From: a virus
Length of the DNA stretch: 32,403 nucleotides
Strand: one strand, 5' to 3'
IMG/VR virus record: IMGVR_UViG_3300027798_000005
Coordinates: 1-32,403 of that record
Every line of letters begins with the position of its first letter. The first letter of the stretch is position 1. The notes below the pieces were generated by a model. That model saw only the letters and a program-made list of their open reading frames with translations. It had not been told where the DNA came from and did not search any database. Position numbers and translations under genes: made by a program. Positions 2,349 through 32,403 of the stretch are shown one piece after another.

Positions 2349-3206
2349 TTATAAAGAGTTTAAATAAGTGTTAACAGCTGTTATAATATCTGAATTTTCA
2401 GATACCATACTTGCGCCATTCATATAGAAAGATATCGTGTGCGCTCCGTAAGAAGTACCACTTCTTAAAATTAATTGATTTGAGGATGTCATTGTAACTG
2501 ATAAAGCAGTTCTGCTCGCTTGCGTAGTTCCGTTAAATAATTCAACATTTGTAACGCTTGTACGATGTATAGACTTCATTCCCTTTGTAGCTGTAAAATC
2601 AAAAGAACCACCTGTTAAACCTAATGATTGATTAATACGCTGATTTACCGAAGAAGTACGAGACATATTATTTATACCTGCTAAACTACGCCCATCCAAA
2701 GCACCTGTACCGCTTGCAGTGTCCATAAATAAAAATCTACTCGCATTATTTTGCGTATAATTAACTCCATCTGTAACAGGATTGAAGTTAGTGTCTATGT
2801 AAGAGCTACTTCCATTACCTTGAAAACCTTTTCCACTTATAAAAGTTGGAGCATTAAATAAAGTTGCTGTATGTGTAAAATTTTTCCAATCAATACGAGC
2901 GAAGTCAGAATTTGAAGTAGTAGCAAAAAGATATAAGCAATCTATTTTACTCCAAGCACCAGCGTTTTTTAAATCAATAACTAACTGATTTTGTTTTAAC
3001 TTTTCATCATCACTTGGTAAAGTAAAACCTAATTCAGTACCTCTATTTAAAATAGATTGATAATCTGCATCATAAGCAAAACCAACTATATTAGTATCGC
3101 CTGCCCAACTATTAGCGTGAACAGAACCCCAACTTATATCGTTGTTAACTGCACCTTGACCCCAACCTATATTATTATTTTTCGCTCCTTGTCCCCAATC
3201 GCTCAT
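2349..3206 (-). CDS. Putative tail fibre / receptor-binding protein
   Basis: N-terminal Trp-Gly repeats (DWGQGAKNNNIGWGQGAVNNDISWGS..SWAGD) are followed by a Ser/Thr/Asn/Gly-rich beta-type domain. It is the last structural gene before the lysis genes. Confidence 0.4.
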   Translation of the reverse strand: MSDWGQGAKNNNIGWGQGAVNNDISWGSVHANSWAGDTNIVGFAYDADYQSILNRGTELGFTLPSDDEKLKQNQLVIDLKNAGAWSKIDCLYLFATTSNSDFARIDWKNFTHTATLFNAPTFISGKGFQGNGSSSYIDTNFNPVTDGVNYTQNNASRFLFMDTASGTGALDGRSLAGINNMSRTSSVNQRINQSLGLTGGSFDFTATKGMKSIHRTSVTNVELFNGTTQASRTALSVTMTSSNQLILRSGTSYGAHTISFYMNGASMVSENSDIITAVNTYLNSL

Positions 3207-3800: not shown

Positions 3801-5600
3801 TTATTTAGGTAAAAAGCCTTTATTAGGCATATCAATAGGTCTTTGAGAAACTAATTCAGGATTTTTTATAACGTATCCGTATTGCTCGGCTTTACGCCCT
3901 GCAATTTGTTTAGCTTTTGGTGAATTAACATCTATGTTTACATTTTCAAAACTTGCATAAACTTGTTTATTCCATCTATGATGGCAAGCTCCCCCGCCTT
4001 TATAAAACCATACATTTACTAAAGGACTTCCGTTAGGTCCAAAACCTTTTTTCTCTCCTTTAGAATTAGTTCTAACCTCGTTTACTTCTTTATTTGACAT
4101 TGCTATAATATCTTCTTTACGATATATTTTACCAGCGTCAATCATTTTTTGGCAAAACTTTCTACTTTTTAAAGTTGTTTCACCTGCGTAAACATATCGA
4201 GTTATAAAACGGACTCCGTCAATAGTTTCATCTTGTTCACTTTTTGAGTTTCCTCTTGCAGTACCGGTACTTACTAAATTGATTATTTTAGATAATAAAC
4301 TTTGATTTGATTCTTTAGATAACAATTCATTTTCTGCATCGTCATTATCGTAATCAACTTCGCTTTCGTCTATTAAAAGCCATTTATCATTTGGTGTTTC
4401 ACCTAAAGAAATTAAAGCATCTGCAACTGAATCATCTGAACTATTTTCACTTAAACAACAAGTATGAGCTGAAAGTTGCGTTCCTGTTTCTTCTGCTACT
4501 TGTTCAGAAGTTTGTGCATTCTCTAAATCGGTAAACTCTAAAGGCTGAATCGTTTTAAAGTATAATTTTAACTTAATATTATTAACTGATAAAATAGTAT
4601 CTAACGCTTCAATGATTTCAATCTGATAAGGTTTGATTACTAAATTATCATAAAGTAAAGTCGCTGTTTTAATTTCGTCTGCATTGTTAGAAAATCCACC
4701 TCCTGAATCACGAACTCCTAAAAGCATTGGTGAAGTAACTCTATGCCCTACAACTAATTTTTCAAAACATTCTTTAGCTAAATATTCATAATGTTGCGGT
4801 GCATCGTTTAATGGTATATCAGTTACTTCCGTTGCATTTTCTTTGCTACTATTAAAAGACACTATTACTTTTTGCCCTTTAGAACCTGTTAATTTACGTT
4901 TTACATCAGCTGAAATTTCTTCTCTTTTTTCTTCAGGCGGTATATTGTTATTAAAGTTTACAACTTTAGTACCACTAAAACCATTCATTACATCATTAAT
5001 CAAATAGTCTGAAATTTCTTCTTCTAACTTTGCATAAGGTAACGCACCCGAATAATCAATCGGAGTATAATAATGGTAACCGCTTACATAAGGTCTTACA
5101 ACATAAAGTTCAACATCTTTTTTATTACCAAAACCAAAAGCAGGAATACGTTTAACCTCATCACTCGGTTTTTTCTTTGCCCAATCAGGATGATAATACC
5201 ACGCTTCAATCTCTCCTTTATCGTTGCATTTTTCAGCTCTTAAAGTATGCATTGGAAAATGCTCTATAAATTTTACTTCGCCCTTTTCGTAAACAACTTG
5301 CATAGCAGCCATTCCTAAAAGTTTTCGTTCTAAAGCAACTTTCTTTAATGCGTTTGGCTTTATTATAGAAATCATTTTAGCGTACTCATCAGGCTTTTTA
5401 TTAGCGTCTAAAGCACTAATACCTTTCCCGTAAATCATATTACTACAACCTGTAATAATAGCGTTATTTGTGGTGCTATATAAATACCTATCAATTAAAA
5501 ACTGAAAGTAGTTGTTATCAGCTCCATATTCCACAAAATCACCTTTTTTACTTTCGTTAATTTGTGGACTTGTATAAGCACTTAAATTTAATACATACAT
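3801..5600 (-). CDS. Portal protein with a C-terminal MuF / SPP1 gp7-like minor head domain
   Basis: 599-aa ORF, the largest head-module gene. An acidic linker is followed by SRKFCQKMIDAGKIY...GGGACHHRW, which resembles the Cys/His signature of MuF-type head morphogenesis proteins. Recognition is from memory. Confidence 0.55.
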   Translation of the reverse strand: MYVLNLSAYTSPQINESKKGDFVEYGADNNYFQFLIDRYLYSTTNNAIITGCSNMIYGKGISALDANKKPDEYAKMISIIKPNALKKVALERKLLGMAAMQVVYEKGEVKFIEHFPMHTLRAEKCNDKGEIEAWYYHPDWAKKKPSDEVKRIPAFGFGNKKDVELYVVRPYVSGYHYYTPIDYSGALPYAKLEEEISDYLINDVMNGFSGTKVVNFNNNIPPEEKREEISADVKRKLTGSKGQKVIVSFNSSKENATEVTDIPLNDAPQHYEYLAKECFEKLVVGHRVTSPMLLGVRDSGGGFSNNADEIKTATLLYDNLVIKPYQIEIIEALDTILSVNNIKLKLYFKTIQPLEFTDLENAQTSEQVAEETGTQLSAHTCCLSENSSDDSVADALISLGETPNDKWLLIDESEVDYDNDDAENELLSKESNQSLLSKIINLVSTGTARGNSKSEQDETIDGVRFITRYVYAGETTLKSRKFCQKMIDAGKIYRKEDIIAMSNKEVNEVRTNSKGEKKGFGPNGSPLVNVWFYKGGGACHHRWNKQVYASFENVNIDVNSPKAKQIAGRKAEQYGYVIKNPELVSQRPIDMPNKGFLPK

Positions 5601-11946: not shown

Positions 11947-14193
11947 TTAAGCATTTTGTATAATTGGTATTTCGATGTCGTTTATTGTTCCTGTTTCGTC
12001 TTGCCACTTTCCAGTAATATATCCTATCCTTTCAGCTCCTGTTGTGTTTTGTGATATATCCACTCGTATTGTTGTGTCATTATCGTAATCAGTAGCTATG
12101 TAATCAATCCACCCATAAAGCGACGCTTGTAATGATATTACAGGACTTACATTACGCAATAATAAAACTTCAATAGTTTGCTCCGTATTATCAACTTCAT
12201 AAAAAGGTTCAAAAGCAAATCTGTTTCCAATCGGAACTTCGCCACTTCGATAGTCCGTAAGCAATTCTAAAGTAGTTTCGCCACTTGTTAAATCAGTTGT
12301 TAGCTTGTTTATAGTATATCTTTTATCTCTTATTATAATTCTGTCATTTAATTTAATATCAATTAACTGAACAGGATTAAAATAGCATTTTACAATAACT
12401 AATCTACTTTTGATATTGAAGATATTACCTAAATAATTTTCGTAGTGTCGTTTGTAAAGTCCGTTTGAAACGTTTGATAAAAACCACGTGCTTATTTCTT
12501 CTCCCCAATTTAAAGTAAGAATAGTTCCGTTGTCGTAATCATTTGAGAATCTTCTGTATTGAGTTATAATTTGATGACCGCCCGTAAGTAAATCAATTCT
12601 AATAGTTGGACTTACCGTTTGCGTTCCGTTATCGTACATCAATAATGGTTTTGGTACGTAATTATTTAGATCACTCTTTTTAAAAGTAAGTGTTTGAAAG
12701 TTACTATTTGATTTACGTTCATACATTGCATTTTCAAAAGGTAACTCTACGCTGAAAGTTGAACTCTCTAAACTATCAATTTGCTCATAAGACAAATCCC
12801 CATAAGAGAAGTTTCGAGTCGACAAAAACAATTCATCAAATTTAGTATTTAATATATTTTCAGATTTTTGGTATTTGAAATTTATATTTTTATACATTGA
12901 TGTTTTCTTTAACTCAATTTCATCTGATATTACATTTGCACTTATATCATTATAACGCCCATCGTTGTAATATAATTCTAAAGGTATTAACTCGTAAGTT
13001 GTTTCATCTTGCGGAATAATTACAAGGTTAAACATTTTGATAAGTCCCGTAATTAAATCAATTAGTTTTAAGTCAGGTGCATAAGATCCAATGTCGATAG
13101 TTGCTCCTATTGTTTGACTTGTACCACTTGCTGTATAACTTACTGCACTACTTCCTATTCCACGAGTATAAGTTAATAAACTTGTAAAAGAAAAACCCGC
13201 TTGCCCTTGAATCGCTAAAGTAAATTTGTCAGTTACGTTTTGAGTAGTTAAAACGTGACTAATAAACAAGTCATTACTATTACCTATAACACCCGCATAA
13301 GTTCCGTGTAACGCTCCATTCTTATAAATTAATATATCATAAGGCTGAGTGCTTGCGGTTGTAATTTGAAGTCTTACTTGTCTAAATCCTGTACCTTGAA
13401 AACCTATTTCATCAGTAGTCAAATTTACTTCCGTATCTGTTAAAGCAGGATTTTTAGAAGTAAAATTCACTTTTAAAGGTGTTAACTTTTGGCTAAAACT
13501 TTCAGTGTTTTTAAACAACATCCATAACTTACTGAATTGCGGATAATCTAAAAAAGCACCCGTAAAATTCAAGTCGTAAGTGTCCGAAATTTTATCTAAA
13601 ATAAAAGACAAAGGAATTGCAGGAAATAAACTATTCCATTTTATAGACCCCGCATTAATTGTAATGTCATTACTTCCGCCTGTATTGTAATCATATATTC
13701 TATCATTCGCAAATAACGGATAAGATACATTACCCGTTGATGTTGTAATTCTGCTAATTACTTCCGTACTTGTATAAGTGTGATTTAAACTACTAAAATC
13801 TAAATTTGCTAACTTATCCTCTTTTAAAATATCTTTTATGTTTTTAGCCTTACCATAAAATACAATTGAATAAGCGTCTAACATTCCGTTTTTATACTTC
13901 ACATCGTTTAACGCAAATGCACCCTCTCTAAAAGTACGTGTATCAATTTCAATATATCCGTTGTATTTTACTCTATGGTCAAAACCACCATCTATACTAC
14001 TTTCGTACCAATGTTTAAATATTTCGTTATTAATTGTACTTGCTGGAATAGTGAAACTTTGTGTAAAATCTGTTTTAGCTTTTGATACGTCAGAAATATC
14101 TTGAACAGATGAAGTTACTGAAATCTTTTCATCTTCAAATAATTCAATGCGTTTCGATATTCCATCAACTTTTATATAAAGTGCTACTATCAT
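11947..14193 (-). CDS. Large tail / baseplate structural protein
   Basis: 748-aa beta-rich ORF translationally coupled (ATGA overlap) to the preceding tail gene. Its N-terminus resembles distal-tail/hub-type proteins. Function is inferred from position. Confidence 0.45.
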   Translation of the reverse strand: MIVALYIKVDGISKRIELFEDEKISVTSSVQDISDVSKAKTDFTQSFTIPASTINNEIFKHWYESSIDGGFDHRVKYNGYIEIDTRTFREGAFALNDVKYKNGMLDAYSIVFYGKAKNIKDILKEDKLANLDFSSLNHTYTSTEVISRITTSTGNVSYPLFANDRIYDYNTGGSNDITINAGSIKWNSLFPAIPLSFILDKISDTYDLNFTGAFLDYPQFSKLWMLFKNTESFSQKLTPLKVNFTSKNPALTDTEVNLTTDEIGFQGTGFRQVRLQITTASTQPYDILIYKNGALHGTYAGVIGNSNDLFISHVLTTQNVTDKFTLAIQGQAGFSFTSLLTYTRGIGSSAVSYTASGTSQTIGATIDIGSYAPDLKLIDLITGLIKMFNLVIIPQDETTYELIPLELYYNDGRYNDISANVISDEIELKKTSMYKNINFKYQKSENILNTKFDELFLSTRNFSYGDLSYEQIDSLESSTFSVELPFENAMYERKSNSNFQTLTFKKSDLNNYVPKPLLMYDNGTQTVSPTIRIDLLTGGHQIITQYRRFSNDYDNGTILTLNWGEEISTWFLSNVSNGLYKRHYENYLGNIFNIKSRLVIVKCYFNPVQLIDIKLNDRIIIRDKRYTINKLTTDLTSGETTLELLTDYRSGEVPIGNRFAFEPFYEVDNTEQTIEVLLLRNVSPVISLQASLYGWIDYIATDYDNDTTIRVDISQNTTGAERIGYITGKWQDETGTINDIEIPIIQNA

Positions 14194-25311: not shown

Positions 25312-25761
25312 TTAAAACGATATACTCAAAGAACTTTTGCGTATATTCTCACTAACTTTTGGAACTTCAACACCCTCACTATCGTAAATAGTTTCATTTG
25401 ACTTTTTAGCCACTTTTAAAAGCATTTCTCTATCAGTCAAAGCTTGTTTAATTTGTTGCCATTTTTCATCCTCTGAATAGTTTGGAGTGCTTCCACCATT
25501 GCGATAAGTTCCTTTGATACCAAATGCTTCGAAGTTTTCACTTGGTAAACTACTTTTAAGCTCATCAGTAACGATTGTTAGTACTTCGTTTAATCTTACA
25601 GCCTGTGCGAATAATTCCACTTTGTCAACTTCGCCAGCATCTAATAAATCTGTTGTAAATTTCTTTGCAGAAAGTTGCAATTCCTTCTTACTTGGTAAAA
25701 AGTTAGTAGTGTTTAACTCCTGTTGAGCCATTAACTCGAATAATTGTTTTGATTTTCCCAT
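25312..25761 (-). CDS. Hypothetical protein (149 aa)
   Basis: ATG ORF 23 nt downstream of a TATATTTG box. Confidence 0.5.
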   Translation of the reverse strand: MGKSKQLFELMAQQELNTTNFLPSKKELQLSAKKFTTDLLDAGEVDKVELFAQAVRLNEVLTIVTDELKSSLPSENFEAFGIKGTYRNGGSTPNYSEDEKWQQIKQALTDREMLLKVAKKSNETIYDSEGVEVPKVSENIRKSSLSISF

Positions 25762-25831: not shown

Positions 25832-26500
25832 TTAAAATAATTCAATTTGTTTACTTTCTTTTTTATTTATAATTCCTAAAGCGGTTTCAAAAATAGTTCT
25901 TCCAGCTTCATAGTCTACCAGGTTACGAGCCATTTTTAAAATTAGCTGTTTGCCTTTATATTTTCTAAAATCGTAATCGTGAAAATCGCATAAATCTTGT
26001 AACCTTGATGCTTGTACTAATGAAGTATCGTTTCTATTACTCAATATATTTGGAAATTTAAAGTTACTCCAATATGTATGCCTATCTTTTTGTATAGGAT
26101 TAAACATAGGCTCATAATATGGATTCACATTTTCAACAACCCATTTACCAAAAAAATGATATTTTAAAAAAATAACCTCTTCATAGAGTTTCATATCTGG
26201 ATAAACAGGTTTTAAACCATTTTTTCCAAAACCCCAATATCTTGCCTTACTATGGCTCGGACAAGGTGGCGAACTCCAAATAAAATCAAACTCTTTGTAA
26301 TGGTCAAGTAAATATTTGTGTGCATCTGCAACTATTACTTTATCATTTGGAAATCGTTCTTGATACAATTGAGCTGCTACCTCATCTAATTCAACAGCAA
26401 TCACTTCAATTTCTATTCCTGCTTGTTTTGCAACTTCATCCCATTTATATCTATTACCACCTAAACAGGCATATAAGTTCAATATTTTATATTTTTCCAT
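25832..26500 (-). CDS. DNA (cytosine-5) methyltransferase, unusually short (222 aa)
   Basis: Motif I LYACLGGN, motif IV SSPPCPSHS (catalytic PC) and motif VI VVENV are present. Confidence 0.7.
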   Translation of the reverse strand: MEKYKILNLYACLGGNRYKWDEVAKQAGIEIEVIAVELDEVAAQLYQERFPNDKVIVADAHKYLLDHYKEFDFIWSSPPCPSHSKARYWGFGKNGLKPVYPDMKLYEEVIFLKYHFFGKWVVENVNPYYEPMFNPIQKDRHTYWSNFKFPNILSNRNDTSLVQASRLQDLCDFHDYDFRKYKGKQLILKMARNLVDYEAGRTIFETALGIINKKESKQIELF

Positions 26501-26607: not shown

Positions 26608-27417
26608 TTAAAATAAAGTTTCTTGTTTCTGATTAATTAATGTTTTTGCAAATCCATATTCTTCAATATCTTTTAGTTTCTGATATTCCTCATCAATCCA
26701 ATTTGAAGATAATTTATGAAAATCTTTTTTAATTTCAAAACCAAAAGCACGCCTTTTCAATTCTTGTGCAGCTATTAAGGTGCTGCCACTTCCAGCGCAA
26801 GGGTCGATAACTACATCGCCTTCATCACTAAAAATTTTAATTAGATTTTTTAAAACTTCTTGCGGTTTTTGAGTAGGGTGTATTTTTTCGCTATTTGTAT
26901 CACGAACCCAATCCATGCAATTAAAAATCATTTTACCTTTATTATTAAATTTTGGTAATTTTTCACGATATAATATTAATGCATATTCGCAATTACCTAC
27001 AACTTTCATATTAGCTTTTAAAACCTGTGCAGAGAAGTTTTTTCTAAATACTAAATTTATATAATGATTAAATCCGTATTTTTTAGCTTTTTCAATAAGT
27101 TCAAATTGTTGTTCAAATTCACAAAATACAATCATACAAGGGCTTTTGCCTTTTTCTTTTGGTTCTTTAATTAACATAGTTGAACAGAAATGTAAAAATT
27201 CTGTAATTCTAAAATCTTTATCAGTATCAAAAAATTCTTTCCCTGCAAGTTCACTTTCCCCATTTGAGTTATCTCCGTCTTTATACCAAGCTGGATTGCT
27301 TGCGTAAGCGTTATTTCCTAAATTATAAGGTATATCTGCTATTACAAGTTGCGCTTTTGGTATAGCGTATGTTTTAAAATTTTGGAAATGGTTGTTAAAT
27401 ATTTGTGCTTTTTTCAT
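26608..27417 (-). CDS. N6-adenine / N4-cytosine DNA methyltransferase (beta class)
   Basis: Motif IV IADIPY (DPPY-type) precedes motif I VIDPCAGSGSTLIAA. Confidence 0.85.
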   Translation of the reverse strand: MKKAQIFNNHFQNFKTYAIPKAQLVIADIPYNLGNNAYASNPAWYKDGDNSNGESELAGKEFFDTDKDFRITEFLHFCSTMLIKEPKEKGKSPCMIVFCEFEQQFELIEKAKKYGFNHYINLVFRKNFSAQVLKANMKVVGNCEYALILYREKLPKFNNKGKMIFNCMDWVRDTNSEKIHPTQKPQEVLKNLIKIFSDEGDVVIDPCAGSGSTLIAAQELKRRAFGFEIKKDFHKLSSNWIDEEYQKLKDIEEYGFAKTLINQKQETLF

Positions 27418-29375: not shown

Positions 29376-29491
29376 TATTTTTTAGTTTTAAAGATTAATA
29401 TTCCGCATATAAGCAATGCTCCAGACATTACAATAAAATTATCGGTACTCATTCCGATAGTTGCAACTGATAAAAAGATAATTGTTTTCAT
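29375..29491 (-). CDS. Small hydrophobic ORF (38 aa), first gene of the minus-strand early operon
   Basis: Hand-translated as MKTIIFLSVATIGMSTDNFIVMSGALLICGILIFKTKK. Its ATG is 21 nt downstream of a TACATTTG box, and there is a TAATG overlap with the next gene. Confidence 0.45.
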   Translation of the reverse strand: MKTIIFLSVATIGMSTDNFIVMSGALLICGILIFKTKK

Positions 29492-29512
29492 GTTTTAAAT
29501 ATTTTGATAGGG

Positions 29513-29520
29513 CAAATGTA
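29513..29520 (-). promoter_or_regulatory. Bacteroidota-type -7 box (TACATTTG on the minus strand), leftward early promoter
   Basis: The plus strand reads CAAATGTA, 21 nt upstream of the ATG at 29491. Confidence 0.55.
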
Positions 29521-29577
29521 AAACGAAAAAAGTTATAAAAAAAATTATTTTATACTTTTTTATTTAAAATATTTGTA

Positions 29578-29585
29578 TATATTTG
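29578..29585 (+). promoter_or_regulatory. Bacteroidota-type -7 box (TATATTTG), rightward promoter of the plus-strand block
   Basis: Read directly, 20 nt upstream of the ATG at 29606. It is divergent from the 29513 box. Confidence 0.55.
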
Positions 29586-29605
29586 CATAAATAAAATTAT
29601 AACAT

Positions 29606-29830
29606 ATGAAAAAAACAGCAGTAGAATGGTTAGTTGAGGAAATGTTAAAGCAAGGATATTTTGATGGTAATAAGCCATTAACATATACAAACTTAGATCA
29701 TTTACAACAACAAGTCAAAGAAATGGAAAAGCAACAGATTGTAGATGCTTATCAACAAGGCTACAATAATGCTTATTTTGCTAATCCATTAAATAAAGAA
29801 CAGTATTACAATGAAACTTTTAACAAATAA
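29606..29830 (+). CDS. Hypothetical protein (74 aa)
   Basis: First ATG ORF downstream of the rightward promoter. Confidence 0.55.
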   Translation: MKKTAVEWLVEEMLKQGYFDGNKPLTYTNLDHLQQQVKEMEKQQIVDAYQQGYNNAYFANPLNKEQYYNETFNK

Positions 29831-29833
29831 AAA

Positions 29834-30043
29834 ATGAACATTTTACAAAAATTAATTTCAGAAACCGCAAAGAATAATAACACCTTTGCTAAAATGGTAG
29901 GAGTAACTCCTTCAAAATTATCGTTACAGATTAAAAGTAAAAATCCAATGACTCCAGCTATTACATACGCTAAATTATTAAAAGTAAAATTAGAGTTTGA
30001 AGAAAATGGCTGTAAAGTTGAATTAGATTATAGTAAAGATTAA
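29834..30043 (+). CDS. Small HTH (Cro-like) protein
   Basis: TFAKMVGVTPSKLSLQIK is an HTH-like segment. Its stop TAA lies inside the TTAAC box of element E1. Confidence 0.4.
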   Translation: MNILQKLISETAKNNNTFAKMVGVTPSKLSLQIKSKNPMTPAITYAKLLKVKLEFEENGCKVELDYSKD

Positions 30044-30178
30044 CGTTTGTGGCTTTGTCGTCGTTGTGGCGATTTAAGACCAAACTTAACAAATAATAAC
30101 TAAATTATAAAATTATGACTGAACTTTCAAAAAATACCCAAGTGCCACAATGCGACAAAACCGCTGTTATGCACAGTA
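30038..30178 (+). repeat. Structured cassette-boundary element E1 (attC-like imperfect inverted repeat)
   Basis: The left arm GATTAAC-GTTT-GTGG-C-TTTGTCG-TCG-TTGTGGC (30038-30070) pairs with the right arm GCCACAA-TG-CGACAAA-A-CCGC-T-GTTATGCACAGTA (30144-30178), with a 73-nt loop between them. Confidence 0.8.
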
Positions 30179-30579
30179 TTTTACTTAAATATCTTCCCTA
30201 TGGTGTTTATTTTAATTGCCAATATGGTAGATTAAAACTTATTGGATATAATGGGAGATTTATTTTTGAAAATGGTGATTCTGCGAAAAATATAATTGAT
30301 TTAGGATATGTTCCTGAATTAAAGAACATAAATGATTTTCTTGTTCAGCAACAATTAAGTAAATTTTCAAGATATATTTTAGGAAAAAGAGAAGATTTAT
30401 ATTTCCACAAAATAACTTGGAAAAAAGGGAAAAATGGCTCATTAACTATAAAAATACCAAATAGAGATACAGGAGGTCATTTACAAATTACAACTTTTTT
30501 AGGTTATAATAAGAATATGACAGCAGAACATTATAATTGGTTTTTAGAAAATCATTATGATATATACGGAGTTCTATAA
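30115..30579 (+). CDS. Hypothetical protein (154 aa, or 136 aa from the ATG at 30169)
   Basis: The first 18 codons overlap the right arm of E1. An in-frame ATG lies inside the GTTATGC box. Confidence 0.55.
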   Translation: MTELSKNTQVPQCDKTAVMHSILLKYLPYGVYFNCQYGRLKLIGYNGRFIFENGDSAKNIIDLGYVPELKNINDFLVQQQLSKFSRYILGKREDLYFHKITWKKGKNGSLTIKIPNRDTGGHLQITTFLGYNKNMTAEHYNWFLENHYDIYGVL

Positions 30580-30725
30580 TATTGTGCATAACGTTTTGTG
30601 GCTTTGCGTTCGTTGGGGATTTCCAGCACTAAAGCCGATTGATAGTACAAATTTTAATTTAAGCAGAAATGATTATAGATAGCACTAAAGCCCCAATGAC
30701 GCAAAACCACTGTTATACGCAGCCC
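30580..30725 (+). repeat. Structured cassette-boundary element E2
   Basis: The left arm TATTGTGCATAAC-GTTTT-GTGG-C-TTTGCGT-TCG-TTGGGG (30580-30618) pairs with the right arm CCCCAA-TG-ACGCAAA-A-CCAC-T-GTTATACGCAGCCC (30691-30725), with a 72-nt loop. Confidence 0.85.
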
Positions 30726-31328
30726 TTTTCGGAAGTTTATAATGAAGATTGTATTGAAATAATGAAACGATATGAAGATAATTACTTTGATATTGCAATA
30801 GTTGACCCACCATACGGAATTGATATAAATTCAAGTGGCACACATTTTAAAGAAAAATACGAAATAAAAGAATGGGATAAAGCAACACCAAATGACGAGT
30901 ATTTTAAAGAACTAAAAAGAGTATCAAAAAATCAAATAATTTGGGGCGGTAACTATTTTTTAGACAGATTAGGAAATTGCAAATGTTTTATTATTTGGGA
31001 TAAAAAAATAGCTGAAGATATGAGTTTTGCAATGTGTGAAATGGCTTGGACTTCATTTAAAAATGGAGCAAAGATTTACAATAAAACTGCAACACAACTA
31101 AATAGAATACACCCGACACAAAAACCAATAGGACTTTATGATTGGTTAATTGATAGATATGCAGAAAAAGGGCAAATTATATTAGATACTCATTTAGGTT
31201 CTGGGTCAAGCAGAATTTCGGCAAATAAAGCTGGTTTATCATTTGTTGGTTGCGAAATTGATAAAGACTATTTCAATGCACAAGAAAAAAGATACAAAGA
31301 ATTTATTTCACAGACGAGGCTCTTTTAG
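30669..31328 (+). CDS. N6-adenine DNA methyltransferase (Dam-like, beta class)
   Basis: Motif IV IVDPPYGI precedes motif I ILDTHLGSGSSRISA. Both possible starts (30669 and 30696) lie inside element E2. Confidence 0.85.
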   Translation: MIIDSTKAPMTQNHCYTQPFSEVYNEDCIEIMKRYEDNYFDIAIVDPPYGIDINSSGTHFKEKYEIKEWDKATPNDEYFKELKRVSKNQIIWGGNYFLDRLGNCKCFIIWDKKIAEDMSFAMCEMAWTSFKNGAKIYNKTATQLNRIHPTQKPIGLYDWLIDRYAEKGQIILDTHLGSGSSRISANKAGLSFVGCEIDKDYFNAQEKRYKEFISQTRLF

Positions 31329-31473
31329 GGTTGCGTATAACGTTTTGACGCTTGGCGATGTGGCAAAAAAAGTACACCCGAATTGTCGAATTATTACTGG
31401 TGCATAAGGTACAAAACCAATTATAAATTAAGCCAGATGTTGCCATATTGCCAAACGGCTGTTATGCAATCGG
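31328..31473 (+). repeat. Structured cassette-boundary element E3
   Basis: The left arm GGGTTGCGTATAAC-GTTTT-GACG-C-TTGGCGATGTGGCA (31328-31365) pairs with the right arm TGCCATATTGCCAA-A-CGGC-T-GTTATGCAATCGG (31441-31473), with a 75-nt loop. Confidence 0.85.
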
Positions 31474-31491
31474 TTTTTAAAATTATGAATT

Positions 31492-31680
31492 ATGAAAAAA
31501 TACGAATACAGAATGATTGATTATGATATGTTTGATGAAGATATGTCAAGAGAAATTGAAGGTCTAACTTCTCGTGGTTGGAAAATTATAAGAATATTAG
31601 AACCTATGAAATGGGTAAATAGCGAAGGAATGTTTATTAGAATATTTTATCAACGTAAACGTTCTGAAACTGTTGCATAA
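31492..31680 (+). CDS. Small protein resembling DUF4177 (62 aa)
   Basis: The YEYRMIDYDMF....LTSRGWKIIRILEP pattern. The ORF lies wholly between the E3 right box and the E4 left box, and its stop TAA is inside GCATAAC. Confidence 0.5.
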   Translation: MKKYEYRMIDYDMFDEDMSREIEGLTSRGWKIIRILEPMKWVNSEGMFIRIFYQRKRSETVA

Positions 31681-31681
31681 C
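31669..31681 (+). repeat. Half element E4 (left outer box only)
   Basis: GTTGCATAAC (31672-31681, within ACTGTTGCATAAC) is complementary to the E3 right box GTTATGCAAT. No matching inner arm or right box was found downstream. Confidence 0.6.
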
Positions 31682-31715
31682 TTGTTGCTAACCTCAATAA
31701 AAGTATTACTTATCT

Positions 31716-31904
31716 ATGTCAAAGCCTATTAAATATACAAAAAGTAAAGTTATTAAGCTAACAGAAGTTCAATATAACACTTTAAAAAAGTTAGAGAATT
31801 ATAACATTAGAGTTTGCGACTTTGTAAGAGATGCAATTGCTGAAAAATTAGAGCGTGATAAACACGAAATATTAAAACCAAAGGCAGATTATTGCCCTTT
31901 TTAA
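31716..31904 (+). CDS. Ribbon-helix-helix (CopG/Arc-like) protein
   Basis: KVIKLTEVQYNTLKKLE...FVRDAIAEKLER shows a strand-helix-helix pattern. Confidence 0.45.
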   Translation: MSKPIKYTKSKVIKLTEVQYNTLKKLENYNIRVCDFVRDAIAEKLERDKHEILKPKADYCPF

Positions 31905-31918
31905 AAATAAAAATTAAG

Positions 31919-32110
31919 ATGGAACCAAAATTAAAAGCAAAAGAGTTGTTTGATAAATACGTAGAATTAAGTGGTATTTTTGTAGGAGATTATGAAAGTG
32001 AAAAAGAAATGTGCTTAATTTTAGTTGATGAAATGTTAAATGAATTTTATACGCACCCTATAGCAAAAATATATTGGCAAGAAGTTAAAAACGAAATCAA
32101 TAAACTATAA
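31919..32110 (+). CDS. Hypothetical protein (63 aa from the first ATG)
   Basis: The track start at 31892 is a TTG. The ATG at 31919 gives MEPKLKAKELF... Confidence 0.45.
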   Translation: MEPKLKAKELFDKYVELSGIFVGDYESEKEMCLILVDEMLNEFYTHPIAKIYWQEVKNEINKL

Positions 32111-32403
32111 AGCACTACCAACAACTAAACCAAACACCACAGCAAAAGGCACAGCGTATTTAAGTGATTTACTTATGCGCTGTTGCTTTTTTATATATCG
32201 CTCCTGTTCTTTTGCAAGTTCAATTAAATTATTCTCTTTTACTTCAAATTGTCCTATAATACTATCTTTAAAAATACCAGCCGTTTTTTCGTTTCCTAAC
32301 ATTTCAGTAGTAACAACATACATACTATCCACATAGTCGCAATCTACTAAACGCAAAGCAATTTCTAAACTATCTTTATCTTTTAAAACTACTTTAGGAT
32401 TTA
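32105..32403 (-). CDS. 3' part of the junction-spanning 189-aa membrane-anchored coiled-coil protein (spanin candidate)
   Basis: The ORF is open to the window end and continues from 398..1. It has a C-terminal hydrophobic helix YAVPFAVVFGLVVGSAL. The M at 32356 in the track is an internal TTG. Confidence 0.6.
   Translation of the reverse strand, partial: NPKVVLKDKDSLEIALRLVDCDYVDSMYVVTTEMLGNEKTAGIFKDSIIGQFEVKENNLIELAKEQERYIKKQQRISKSLKYAVPFAVVFGLVVGSAL
32277..32403. repeat. Terminal direct repeat, exact copy of 1..127
   Basis: Read directly. Confidence 0.95.

Follow-up and report, generated by a model that had tools for sequence, protein, structure and literature searches.

We analysed a 32,403-nt stretch of viral DNA (positions 1 to 32,403 of IMG/VR record IMGVR_UViG_3300027798_000005, hereafter the window) and interpret its positions 30045-31681, with a probability of about 85%, as a three-cassette integron-type array without a recombinase of its own, that is, a cluster of attC sites lacking integron integrases (CALIN), in a virulent-type flavobacterial phage. 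Three attC-type elements stand in series within 1.4 kb, and the 32.4-kb window encodes no recombinase. Judged from the sequence, the mobile units would be 30045-30592, 30593-31341 and 31342-31681, each comprising an element and the gene downstream of it and ending in ...TAAC. A short operon running rightward (29606-32110) has region 30040-31681 at its 3' end and diverges from the structural, lysis and replication genes, mostly encoded on the - strand. The features of the array are listed below; R1 denotes a covariance model of the elements.

30040-30044, + strand: attachment box of the backbone, TTAAC, where the 69-aa gene 29834-30043 ends; directly followed by the array
30045-30165, + strand: element E1, attC-like hairpin, 121 nt; R1 E = 2e-15; end-duplex -30.4 kcal/mol
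30166-30592, + strand: cassette body 1; 5' box 30166-30180, 3' box 30578-30592; 15/15 pairing, G.T at position 11
30593-30711, + strand: element E2, 119 nt; R1 E = 1.7e-23 on the + strand versus 0.019 on the - strand
30712-31341, + strand: cassette body 2; 5' box 30712-30726, 3' box 31327-31341; 15/15 pairing, G.T at position 11
31342-31460, + strand: element E3, 119 nt; R1 E = 8.4e-14
31461-31681, + strand: cassette body 3, the last cassette; 5' box 31461-31476 (T31470 bulged), 3' box 31667-31681, from the circular-junction fold
31682-31715, + strand: backbone restart (TTGTTGCTAACCTCAATAAAAG...), where the related contig L007 rejoins the window after two different cassettes

Each element comes after ...TAAC and stops just before GTTA... 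in the sequence. It opens with a G and 4-5 unpaired bases; two stems follow, one of 4 bp and, across a C/A mismatch, one of 6-8 bp with further pairs behind it; beyond an AT-rich loop, the complementary arm and a single T close the element. This corresponds to the attC-type architecture TAAC↓G (4-5 unpaired nt), stem a, C/A mismatch, stem b, loop, T↓GTTA (arrows mark element boundaries), with an outer core of (A/G)TAAC instead of a strict RYYYAAC. Three asymmetries are conserved: the C/A mismatch between the inner stems, spacers of 4-5 nt versus 1 nt, and the G.T at position 11 of the boxes. The initial annotation had placed the first element differently; its coordinates are corrected here to 30045-30165, preceded by TTAAC at 30040-30044.

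The AT-rich loop of E1 contains the ATG (30115) and first 17 codons of the cassette-1 open reading frame (ORF; 30115-30579, 154 aa), and E2 contains the ATG (30669) of the cassette-2 ORF (30669-31328), which encodes an N6/N4 DNA methyltransferase (Pfam PF01555, E = 5.9e-16). As the start codons lie in the loops, both ORFs read through the right arm of the element and the 5' box. The cassette-3 ORF spans 31492-31680 (62 aa). Neither the 154-aa nor the 62-aa product had a match in Pfam or PHROGs or belongs to a recognised family, and we abandoned the previous label of the third gene as DUF4177-like.

Gene-specific boxes bracket each cassette

Every gene of 30166-31681 is bracketed by a 15-nt inverted repeat that follows the rule GTTA-N6-G-N4 ... 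N4-T-N6-TAAC, with a gene-specific sequence and a fixed G.T at position 11. Complementarity across each gene had been described before, and the pairs held up on re-examination: 30166-30178 matches 30580-30592 in 13 of 13 positions including one G.T, 30712-30725 matches 31328-31341 in 14 of 14, and 31461-31470 matches 31672-31681 through nine Watson-Crick pairs and a terminal T.G. The first two extend to the full 15 nt, as 30166-30180 (GTTATGCACAGTATT) with 30578-30592 (AATATTGTGCATAAC) and as 30712-30726 (GTTATACGCAGCCCT) with 31327-31341 (AGGGTTGCGTATAAC), each made up of 10 Watson-Crick pairs, the G.T and 4 more Watson-Crick pairs. With T31470 bulged, the third likewise yields 15 pairs with the G.T at position 11 (31461-31476 with 31667-31681), and the same bulge appears in the single-stranded DNA fold of the circular junction.

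Comparing all 5' boxes with all 3' boxes gave full pairing only between boxes of the same gene, and the two outer boxes of one element pair poorly, as first noted, through TAAC/GTTA(T) alone (4-5 bp). The strict 15-nt pattern is present as two pairs in the window, on the + strand only, and was absent from 300 window shuffles (mean 0.0); when one mismatch was tolerated, shuffles yielded 0.11 pairs on average. Relaxing the search to inverted repeats of 12 nt or more with one mismatch gave matches that did not exceed chance (17.6 per shuffle), and this looser criterion was dropped; the signal therefore sits in the full-length 15-nt pattern.

The box rule holds throughout seven phage isolates (six Lillamyvirus, one Muminvirus) with 10-19 cassettes each. 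In bacteria, 196 of 199 cassette-flanking 15-nt repeats from the matches listed (at least 120 genome loci) carry a G.T at position 11 when read on the element-sense strand with that position unconstrained, the G lying in the 5' box and the T in the 3' box. Furthermore, the methyltransferase cassette of hemulen6-1 (L002 6019-6689), a homologue of window cassette 2, has other boxes that are again mutually complementary. Homologous cassettes with different, each self-complementary boxes indicate that complementarity is maintained and is not a chance inheritance.

The elements form one family of sites predicted to fold

Co-variation of the inner stems within an element, likewise proposed at the outset, was borne out by end-duplex energies and by covariation across 56 bacterial homologues. 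The end duplexes of E1, E2 and E3 reach -30.4, -29.9 and -26.7 kcal/mol, compared with -18.6 kcal/mol for the best background elsewhere in the window. Across the homologues, 92.7% of the inner stem is paired, and its covariation scores 0.722, versus 0.193 in shuffles and ~0.1 in slid controls. Covariance model R1, made solely from these 56 elements of Bacteroidota genomes, matched the window exactly three times, at full length and on the + strand only (E = 1.7e-23 for E2, 2e-15 for E1 and 8.4e-14 for E3). Bacterial elements were oriented by the AAC↓G ... T↓GTT rule, fold energy alone being unreliable for orientation. A scan of 29400-32403 against Rfam, with E up to 10, returned sub-threshold chance matches only and no curated RNA family. 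The window array is a member of a large family of attC-like sites in Bacteroidota. In chromosomal arrays the elements have a uniform length (mode 118 nt); in Lillamyvirus/Muminvirus arrays they measure 56-67, about 118 or 186 nt.

When folded as single-stranded DNA with DNA parameters, the + strand outperformed the - strand for all three elements, for instance with -18.1 versus -16.3 kcal/mol for E2 and -15.9 versus -11.4 kcal/mol for E3. The + strand is thus the folding strand and corresponds to the integron 'bottom strand'. In their array context, E1-E3 fold at -16.0, -18.1 and -15.9 kcal/mol; the circular junctions of cassettes 1-3 reach -25.3, -30.8 and -24.8 kcal/mol (z -4.8, -6.1 and -3.1), each as one continuous hairpin. 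The site would presumably work as folded single-stranded DNA.

Individual elements recur in other viruses. E1 is 91-94% identical to an element of Baltic Flavobacterium phages (Lillamyvirus), which share almost no proteins with the window phage, and E2 is 96.6% identical to two elements of viral contig L152. E1-type elements (94% identity) stand in frame before three unrelated genes: window cassette 1, the Lillamyvirus methyltransferase gene gp009 and a gene of IMG/VR contig L249. Their loop and right arm encode the N-terminal peptide MTELSKN(T/A)QVPQCDKT(A/T)V (window 30115-30168, L001 5076-5129, L249 ~3868-3921), fused to the 154-aa window protein, to the gp009 methyltransferase and to the L249 protein. 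Judged by these three cases, an E1-type element seems to provide a start codon and leader to whichever body comes next.

Further element variants were seen. On the reverse complement of L152, two identical E2-like copies (3045-3163 and 3908-4026) share the same 5' box (GTTACCCGCTGTTT) and are followed by different genes, and the bodies next to them have 3' boxes that do not fit their 5' boxes; by its sequence, L152 looks like a chimeric or rearranged array. A variant of 179-186 nt holds a whole small ORF in its loop (Lillamyvirus L001 4361-4546, MNKEVKKILEKEFDYDFKSEF...; L007 reverse complement 13373-13551), so the element loop can grow to hold coding sequence. Element loops (for E2, window 30625-30695; alignment columns ~35-105) also contain 3-4 spaced copies of AGCAC(A/T)AA. 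On the opposite strand these read TTTGTGCT, resembling the -33/-7 promoter motifs of Bacteroidetes, and the copies could be promoters or binding sites of an accessory protein.

Cassettes are gained, lost and moved as element plus downstream gene

Comparison with relatives, suggested at the outset as a check, showed that the site holds different numbers of cassettes from one genome to the next and that the breakpoints fall exactly at TAAC↓. The backbones of these relatives are 76-98% identical in the neighbouring protein. L012 and L011 have no cassette at the site, and a terminator follows; L008 has one cassette, L007 two, the window three and L005 at least three, and the cassettes of the relatives are unrelated to one another. 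L007, L008 and L012 keep a homologue of the 69-aa gene ending in (G/A)TAAC, followed by another first cassette (L007, L008) or by none (L012), and the L007 backbone rejoins at window position 31682. The idea that E1 belongs permanently to the backbone, in an attI-like role, was rejected, as L007 and L008 have other first elements and L012 none. Among the relatives whose locus is complete, L007 is the closest. Its last cassette (reverse complement 13665-13760) has a degenerate 3' box, TATAAT for TATAAC, beyond which nested GC-rich hairpins occupy ~100 nt (TAGGCGGGC...GCCCGCCTA, with a terminator-like stem after them); the window has no such sequence.

In the same line, all gains, losses and moves among the seven Lillamyvirus/Muminvirus genomes involve a whole unit of element plus downstream body, and five different last cassettes in Lillamyvirus abut one and the same backbone. 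A 439-nt unit that is 100% identical in two isolates of one species occupies different places: in lillamy9-1 it lies between two cassettes, and lillamy9-7 has it at the end of the array. In lillamy9-7 the donor site is cleanly resealed (ACATAAC↓GTTAAAGC), and the target reads CTTATAAC↓TACAATATT, with AAC↓ junctions and no duplication. The end that received the unit is the one that adjoins the recombinase in complete systems. As in integrons, arrays thus vary among close relatives and units re-enter at the attI-proximal end. Crossover falls in the outer core at the boundary ...AA↓C: donor and target junctions, all array ends and all insertions and deletions lie at AAC↓ to the nucleotide, although the exact phosphodiester bond cannot be placed within the shared TAAC.

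These comparisons settled how far the earlier cassette proposal holds. Its core, site-specific mobility of the integron type as opposed to RNA processing, stands. Its crossover point, G/TT of the right box, does not: the comparative breakpoints fall where the left box ends on its 3' side, TAAC↓G, so the element travels with the downstream gene. The proposed units 30166-30711, 30712-31460 and 31461-31681, each a gene with its downstream element, are likewise rejected by the insertions and deletions tabulated for Lillamyvirus/Muminvirus. By analogy with the relatives, junction 31681/31682 would be the insertion end of the array, in an attI-like position. Cassettes 1 and 3 had no copy among the other loci fetched, and a megablast search of 50,697 phage records with 20 kb of window sequence gave no match.

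A model for cassette exchange

From sequence comparison, the unit geometry appears to be that of a canonical integron read on the folding ('bottom') strand, with the phage genes on that same strand. In the model that we propose, a Xer/IntI-like tyrosine recombinase would cut the hairpin at its 5' base, within or beside TAA↓C, and recombination between two successive sites would free a circle. In this circle, the cassette's own 3' and 5' boxes would flank the element and zip into a 15-bp outer stem with the G.T at position 11, prolonging the inner stems, and the circle would then re-enter at the 3' end of the array. The joining of a cassette's own two boxes around the element would explain why outer boxes co-vary across the gene and inner stems within the element. 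In the array, the element sits between the 3' box of the previous cassette and its own 5' box, which have only TAAC/GTTA in common.

A Xer-like recombinase adjoins related arrays

The initial annotation had found no cognate integrase in the phage, and our searches agree: Pfam, PHROGs and phmmer with a recombinase seed detected no tyrosine recombinase in the window, lillamy9-1 or P12002L. For the window, Pfam was run on 28 ORFs (all 23 of at least 150 aa and some smaller ones) and PHROGs on eight ORFs, most of them near the array, together with two ORFs of L001. Two other candidates for the enzyme failed. Lillamyvirus gp001, the large gene next to the array, encodes an exonuclease, and the proteins common to the window phage and Lillamyvirus are only the methyltransferase, a 149-aa protein and the holin.

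Complete systems exist elsewhere. In five bacterial loci, examined as 8-kb blocks (F. difficile KDG-16, with the recombinase at L130 4569-5627, Arundinibacter roseus, Terrimonas sp. and two metagenome-assembled genomes (MAGs)), a tyrosine recombinase gene lies directly past the 3' array end in the sense of the elements. A homologous recombinase of 266-294 aa begins 40-60 nt past the TAAC of the last cassette in at least eight viral contigs. These array-associated proteins score best on NF040815 'tyrosine recombinase/integron integrase' and TIGR02249 'integron integrase', nearly all below the cut-offs; the TIGR02249 match comes in two stretches that skip model positions about 179-254, and the nearest solved structures are XerA and then VchIntIA. 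The window array presumably depends on a recombinase supplied in trans, which may be encoded by the host chromosome or by another phage, co-infecting or resident.

In recombinase-bearing systems, both phage (viral contigs L202, which is IMGVR_UViG_3300020045_012733, L251, L258, L180, L147 and L229) and bacterial (L130, L047, L117, L072 and L059), the last cassette is followed by the motif TAAC↓N3-5-TATAT(A/G), a candidate attI-like site by its sequence and position. Lillamyvirus has a recognisably similar sequence, TAAC↓TACAATATTAC (L001 7193-7210).

Distribution and gene orientation in bacteria and phages

We scanned a species-representative genome collection and IMG/VR with a pattern taken from these same elements, so that all counts are lower bounds. 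The pattern was found at no fewer than 120 loci of the genome collection, almost exclusively in Bacteroidota among the matches listed, and gave at least 120 matches in IMG/VR. Array-bearing isolates belong to Flavobacterium, Riemerella, Pedobacter, Hymenobacter, Arundinibacter and Terrimonas, and an array of the bacterial type is carried by LMO8, a Flavobacterium sp. that served as a host strain in the Lillamyvirus study. In the Lillamyvirus and Muminvirus isolates (six and one), the entire leftward early region is a chain of cassettes, 10-19 per genome. One locus, L069 (contig JAYRNA010000016, binned as Candidatus Saccharimonadales), shows the phage-type layout of sense cassettes followed by a co-directional recombinase of 276 aa, and may be a prophage or a mis-binned phage contig. 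The other titles from outside Bacteroidota (Bacillota, Bifidobacteriaceae, Gammaproteobacteria MAGs and Pseudidiomarina) may be similar cases of binning or contamination.

Gene orientation separates the two groups. Among the matches listed, bacterial cassette genes lie opposite to the folding, G.T-bearing strand in 130 of 141 decisive cases (130:11), as expected of integrons, whose ORFs oppose the recombinogenic bottom strand. Phage cassette genes depart from this and lie on the folding strand, with counts of 62:0 in isolates, 211:4 in the viral contigs among the matches listed and 2:0 in the window. The split follows from the platform layouts. Bacterial platforms start with the recombinase and the insertion site, from which the genes point away; phage platforms start with an early promoter, after which the genes point towards the insertion site and the recombinase comes last.

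Weighing the evidence

Several points weigh against the integron-type interpretation. As neither the window nor lillamy9-1 encodes a recombinase, activity in the window phage is inferred, and circular intermediates and single-stranded substrates are likewise inferred rather than observed. The terminal junction of the window (31682, TTGTTGCTAACC) lacks the TATAT motif. On TIGR02249, the array-associated recombinases score 150-231 bits against a cut-off of 265, and alignment to IntI1 indicates that ~50 residues are absent where the IntI-specific insertion lies. The arrays are therefore not integrons in the strict sense, which calls for an adjacent IntI with its specific domain, and the window has no tyrosine recombinase at all. 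Near-identical E1- and E2-type elements precede different bodies, so some exchange takes place at or beyond the 5' box that the simple model does not predict; recombination of the other strand or homologous recombination could account for it. Finally, prevalence and taxonomic range are only rough and the picture is biased to close relatives, as the scans give lower bounds with a pattern derived from these elements.

Another way to account for the boxes is a function in RNA: they would pair in the polycistronic transcript as a panhandle or RNase III-type stem that processes or stabilises monocistronic mRNAs, with differences in gene content being secondary. The initial annotation had offered the panhandle as its alternative. 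In phages, the folding strand is indeed the coding strand, and the fixed mismatch is there a G.U-compatible wobble, so the mRNA would fold and a secondary effect could add to the primary one. However, the G.T is kept in bacteria although its strand is antisense to the genes in most decisive cases, which argues that the pairing is not selected in mRNA; as the G.T follows the element and not the direction of transcription, it is a feature of the DNA. Moreover, in cassettes 1 and 2 the 5' box is part of the ORF and comes after the start codon, which cleavage would remove, and exact gain, loss and relocation of cassettes and the adjacent recombinase are left unexplained. We hold an RNA function to be highly improbable as the primary role; the phage mRNA does contain these hairpins, with a possible secondary effect. 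Scarcely more credible is homologous recombination at conserved intergenic repeats, like the promoter-early stem-loops of T4 and without any site-specific enzyme. The identity of up to 94-97% between elements of unrelated phages speaks for it, as do L152 and the E1-type elements, where the same element stands on different bodies. Yet most elements within one array are too diverged for this (19 clusters at 85% identity) and all breakpoints nevertheless fall at TAAC↓, the relocation in lillamy9-7 landed beside backbone without an element, and neither the gene-specific complementary boxes with their invariant G.T nor the dedicated tyrosine recombinase beside related arrays would be accounted for.

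The GTTA...TAAC-ended inverted repeats around each gene might also suggest a small DNA transposon, similar to a miniature inverted-repeat transposable element, with 15-bp terminal repeats and moved by a transposase. The mobile unit, though, includes the whole upstream element, so the repeats are not its bounds; no target-site duplication is seen at donor or target, the ORFs searched in the window include no transposase, and the repeat sequence differs from cassette to cassette, leaving no common transposase binding site. We give this idea practically no weight. A fossil array, built in a host integron or in a recombinase-encoding phage and now carried as inert cargo, deserves more attention and is still unlikely in our judgement. 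It would fit the missing recombinase, the terminal junction without a TATAT motif and the lack of copies of cassettes 1 and 3 among the other loci fetched. Against it, close relatives (91-98% identity in the neighbouring protein) hold other cassette sets at the same site, all three elements and box pairs of the window are intact, and Lillamyvirus, also without a recombinase, shows a relocation of a 100%-identical unit, so arrays without a recombinase of their own are demonstrably dynamic.

Relation to known systems

Like integrons, whether class 1 or the sedentary chromosomal type (for example, the array of Vibrio cholerae with ~120-nt VCRs), these are arrays of genes each with one imperfect palindrome. 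Shared features are the outer ...TAAC and GTTA... cores, unpaired spacer, covarying inner stems and variable loop; a crossover within the core, so that the outer-core halves in the array come from different cassettes; better folding of one strand; uniform element length in chromosomal arrays; and cassettes that are excised and re-inserted at the array end beside the recombinase. In contrast to the 7-bp R box of integrons, the outer stem here has 15 bp and an invariant G.T at position 11, and the recombinase lacks the IntI-specific insertion and stays under the TIGR02249 cut-off. Unlike in integrons, phage genes lie on the folding strand, often with start codons within the element loop, and the phage recombinase gene, when present, is downstream of and co-directional with the cassettes. 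Gene orientation, the build of the outer stem and the type of recombinase set the phage form apart from canonical integrons.

Two other modular systems bear a resemblance. The pdif modules of Acinetobacter plasmids are discrete gene modules between short inverted sites, served in trans by a Xer-type tyrosine recombinase. Their sites, however, are double-stranded 28-bp XerC/XerD sites in alternating orientation and are not known to have a ~120-nt hairpin or gene-specific complementary boxes. The promoter-early stem-loops of T4-type phages recur between genes of hyperplastic regions in virulent phages, flank small accessory genes and are linked to modular gene exchange. Unlike the elements described here, they are thought to act by homologous or illegitimate recombination at a promoter and terminator repeat and are not known to have cassette-specific boxes, a fixed breakpoint or a dedicated tyrosine recombinase.

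The initial annotation had called such an array in a phage without an integrase unusual. This no longer applies, since integrase-less attC clusters in virulent phages, including a flavobacterial phage with methyltransferase cassettes, were published in 2023. That report lists 17 CALINs in phages, each of 2-4 predicted sites; the CALIN of Polaribacter phage P12002L has two methyltransferase cassettes, and recombination of a P12002L site by IntI1 was shown (Qi et al. 2023, Front Microbiol; PMC9892861). There, attC1 was predicted by HattCI alone and attC2 by HattCI and INFERNAL (PMC9892861). The recombined site consists of the terminal 3' box of the array and the backbone beyond, and the primer convention would make the active 'bottom' strand the gene-sense strand, in agreement with the geometry here; the P12002L cassettes obey the box rule in part. 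The window array resembles these phage CALINs in its attC-type sites, missing integrase, methyltransferase cassettes and flavobacterial context (P12002L). Unlike here, the report names no Flavobacterium phage among the 17, and its sections consulted give no account of the 10-19-cassette Lillamyvirus/Muminvirus arrays, the rule for the boxes, the phase of the unit, the inverted strand or a phage-borne Xer-like recombinase (PMC9892861). Integrons have been reported in Bacteroidota (PMC8618304). The literature searched, in which few subscription journals were covered, held nothing closer than PMC9892861 and no account of the 15-bp G.T box, the strand inversion in phages, an insertion-less recombinase beside arrays or phage contigs carrying that recombinase.

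Neighbouring genes of the window

Two more methyltransferase-like genes lie outside the array on the - strand, at 25832-26500 (PF00145, N-terminal part only) and 26608-27417 (PF01555). Also on the - strand, 25312-25761 encodes a 149-aa protein of no family that is 60% identical to Lillamyvirus gp039, the gene of which adjoins that of methyltransferase gp038; gp038 is 48% identical to the cassette-2 enzyme of the window. All three window genes are without flanking boxes or elements.

Implications

Integrons are seen as bacterial devices, with phage examples so far confined to a few clusters of 2-4 sites. The present findings suggest that such phages trade accessory genes, for example DNA methyltransferases, by site-specific recombination. 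A broader reading, to which we give about even odds, is that Bacteroidota have an unrecognised integron-like system with a distinct branch adapted to phages, in which the window is a member without a recombinase; phage and bacterial cassette pools would then be separate, and counter-defence genes would be shuffled in real time. This system would combine ~118-nt attC-like sites, a 15-bp circular stem with a G.T and a short Xer-like recombinase without the IntI extrahelical-base domain. Its phage platform would be turned round, with an early promoter, folding-strand cassettes having start codons in the site, an attI-like TATAT site and the recombinase, and virulent phages without a recombinase would shuffle methyltransferases and other genes using an enzyme supplied in trans.

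If the interpretation as a mobile integron-type array is correct, integron logic would be widespread in Bacteroidota phages, in arrays of up to 19 cassettes that take up ~7.5 kb of a 38-kb genome. Integron finders keyed on the IntI insertion would call these arrays CALINs or miss them. Strand choice without the IntI extrahelical-base domain would become testable, with the position-11 G.T and the C/A mismatch as candidates, and so would the questions of what sets gene orientation in a cassette and how one element supplies a start codon to different genes. Above all, virulent phages would have a concrete way to swap methyltransferases and other small genes against host defences.

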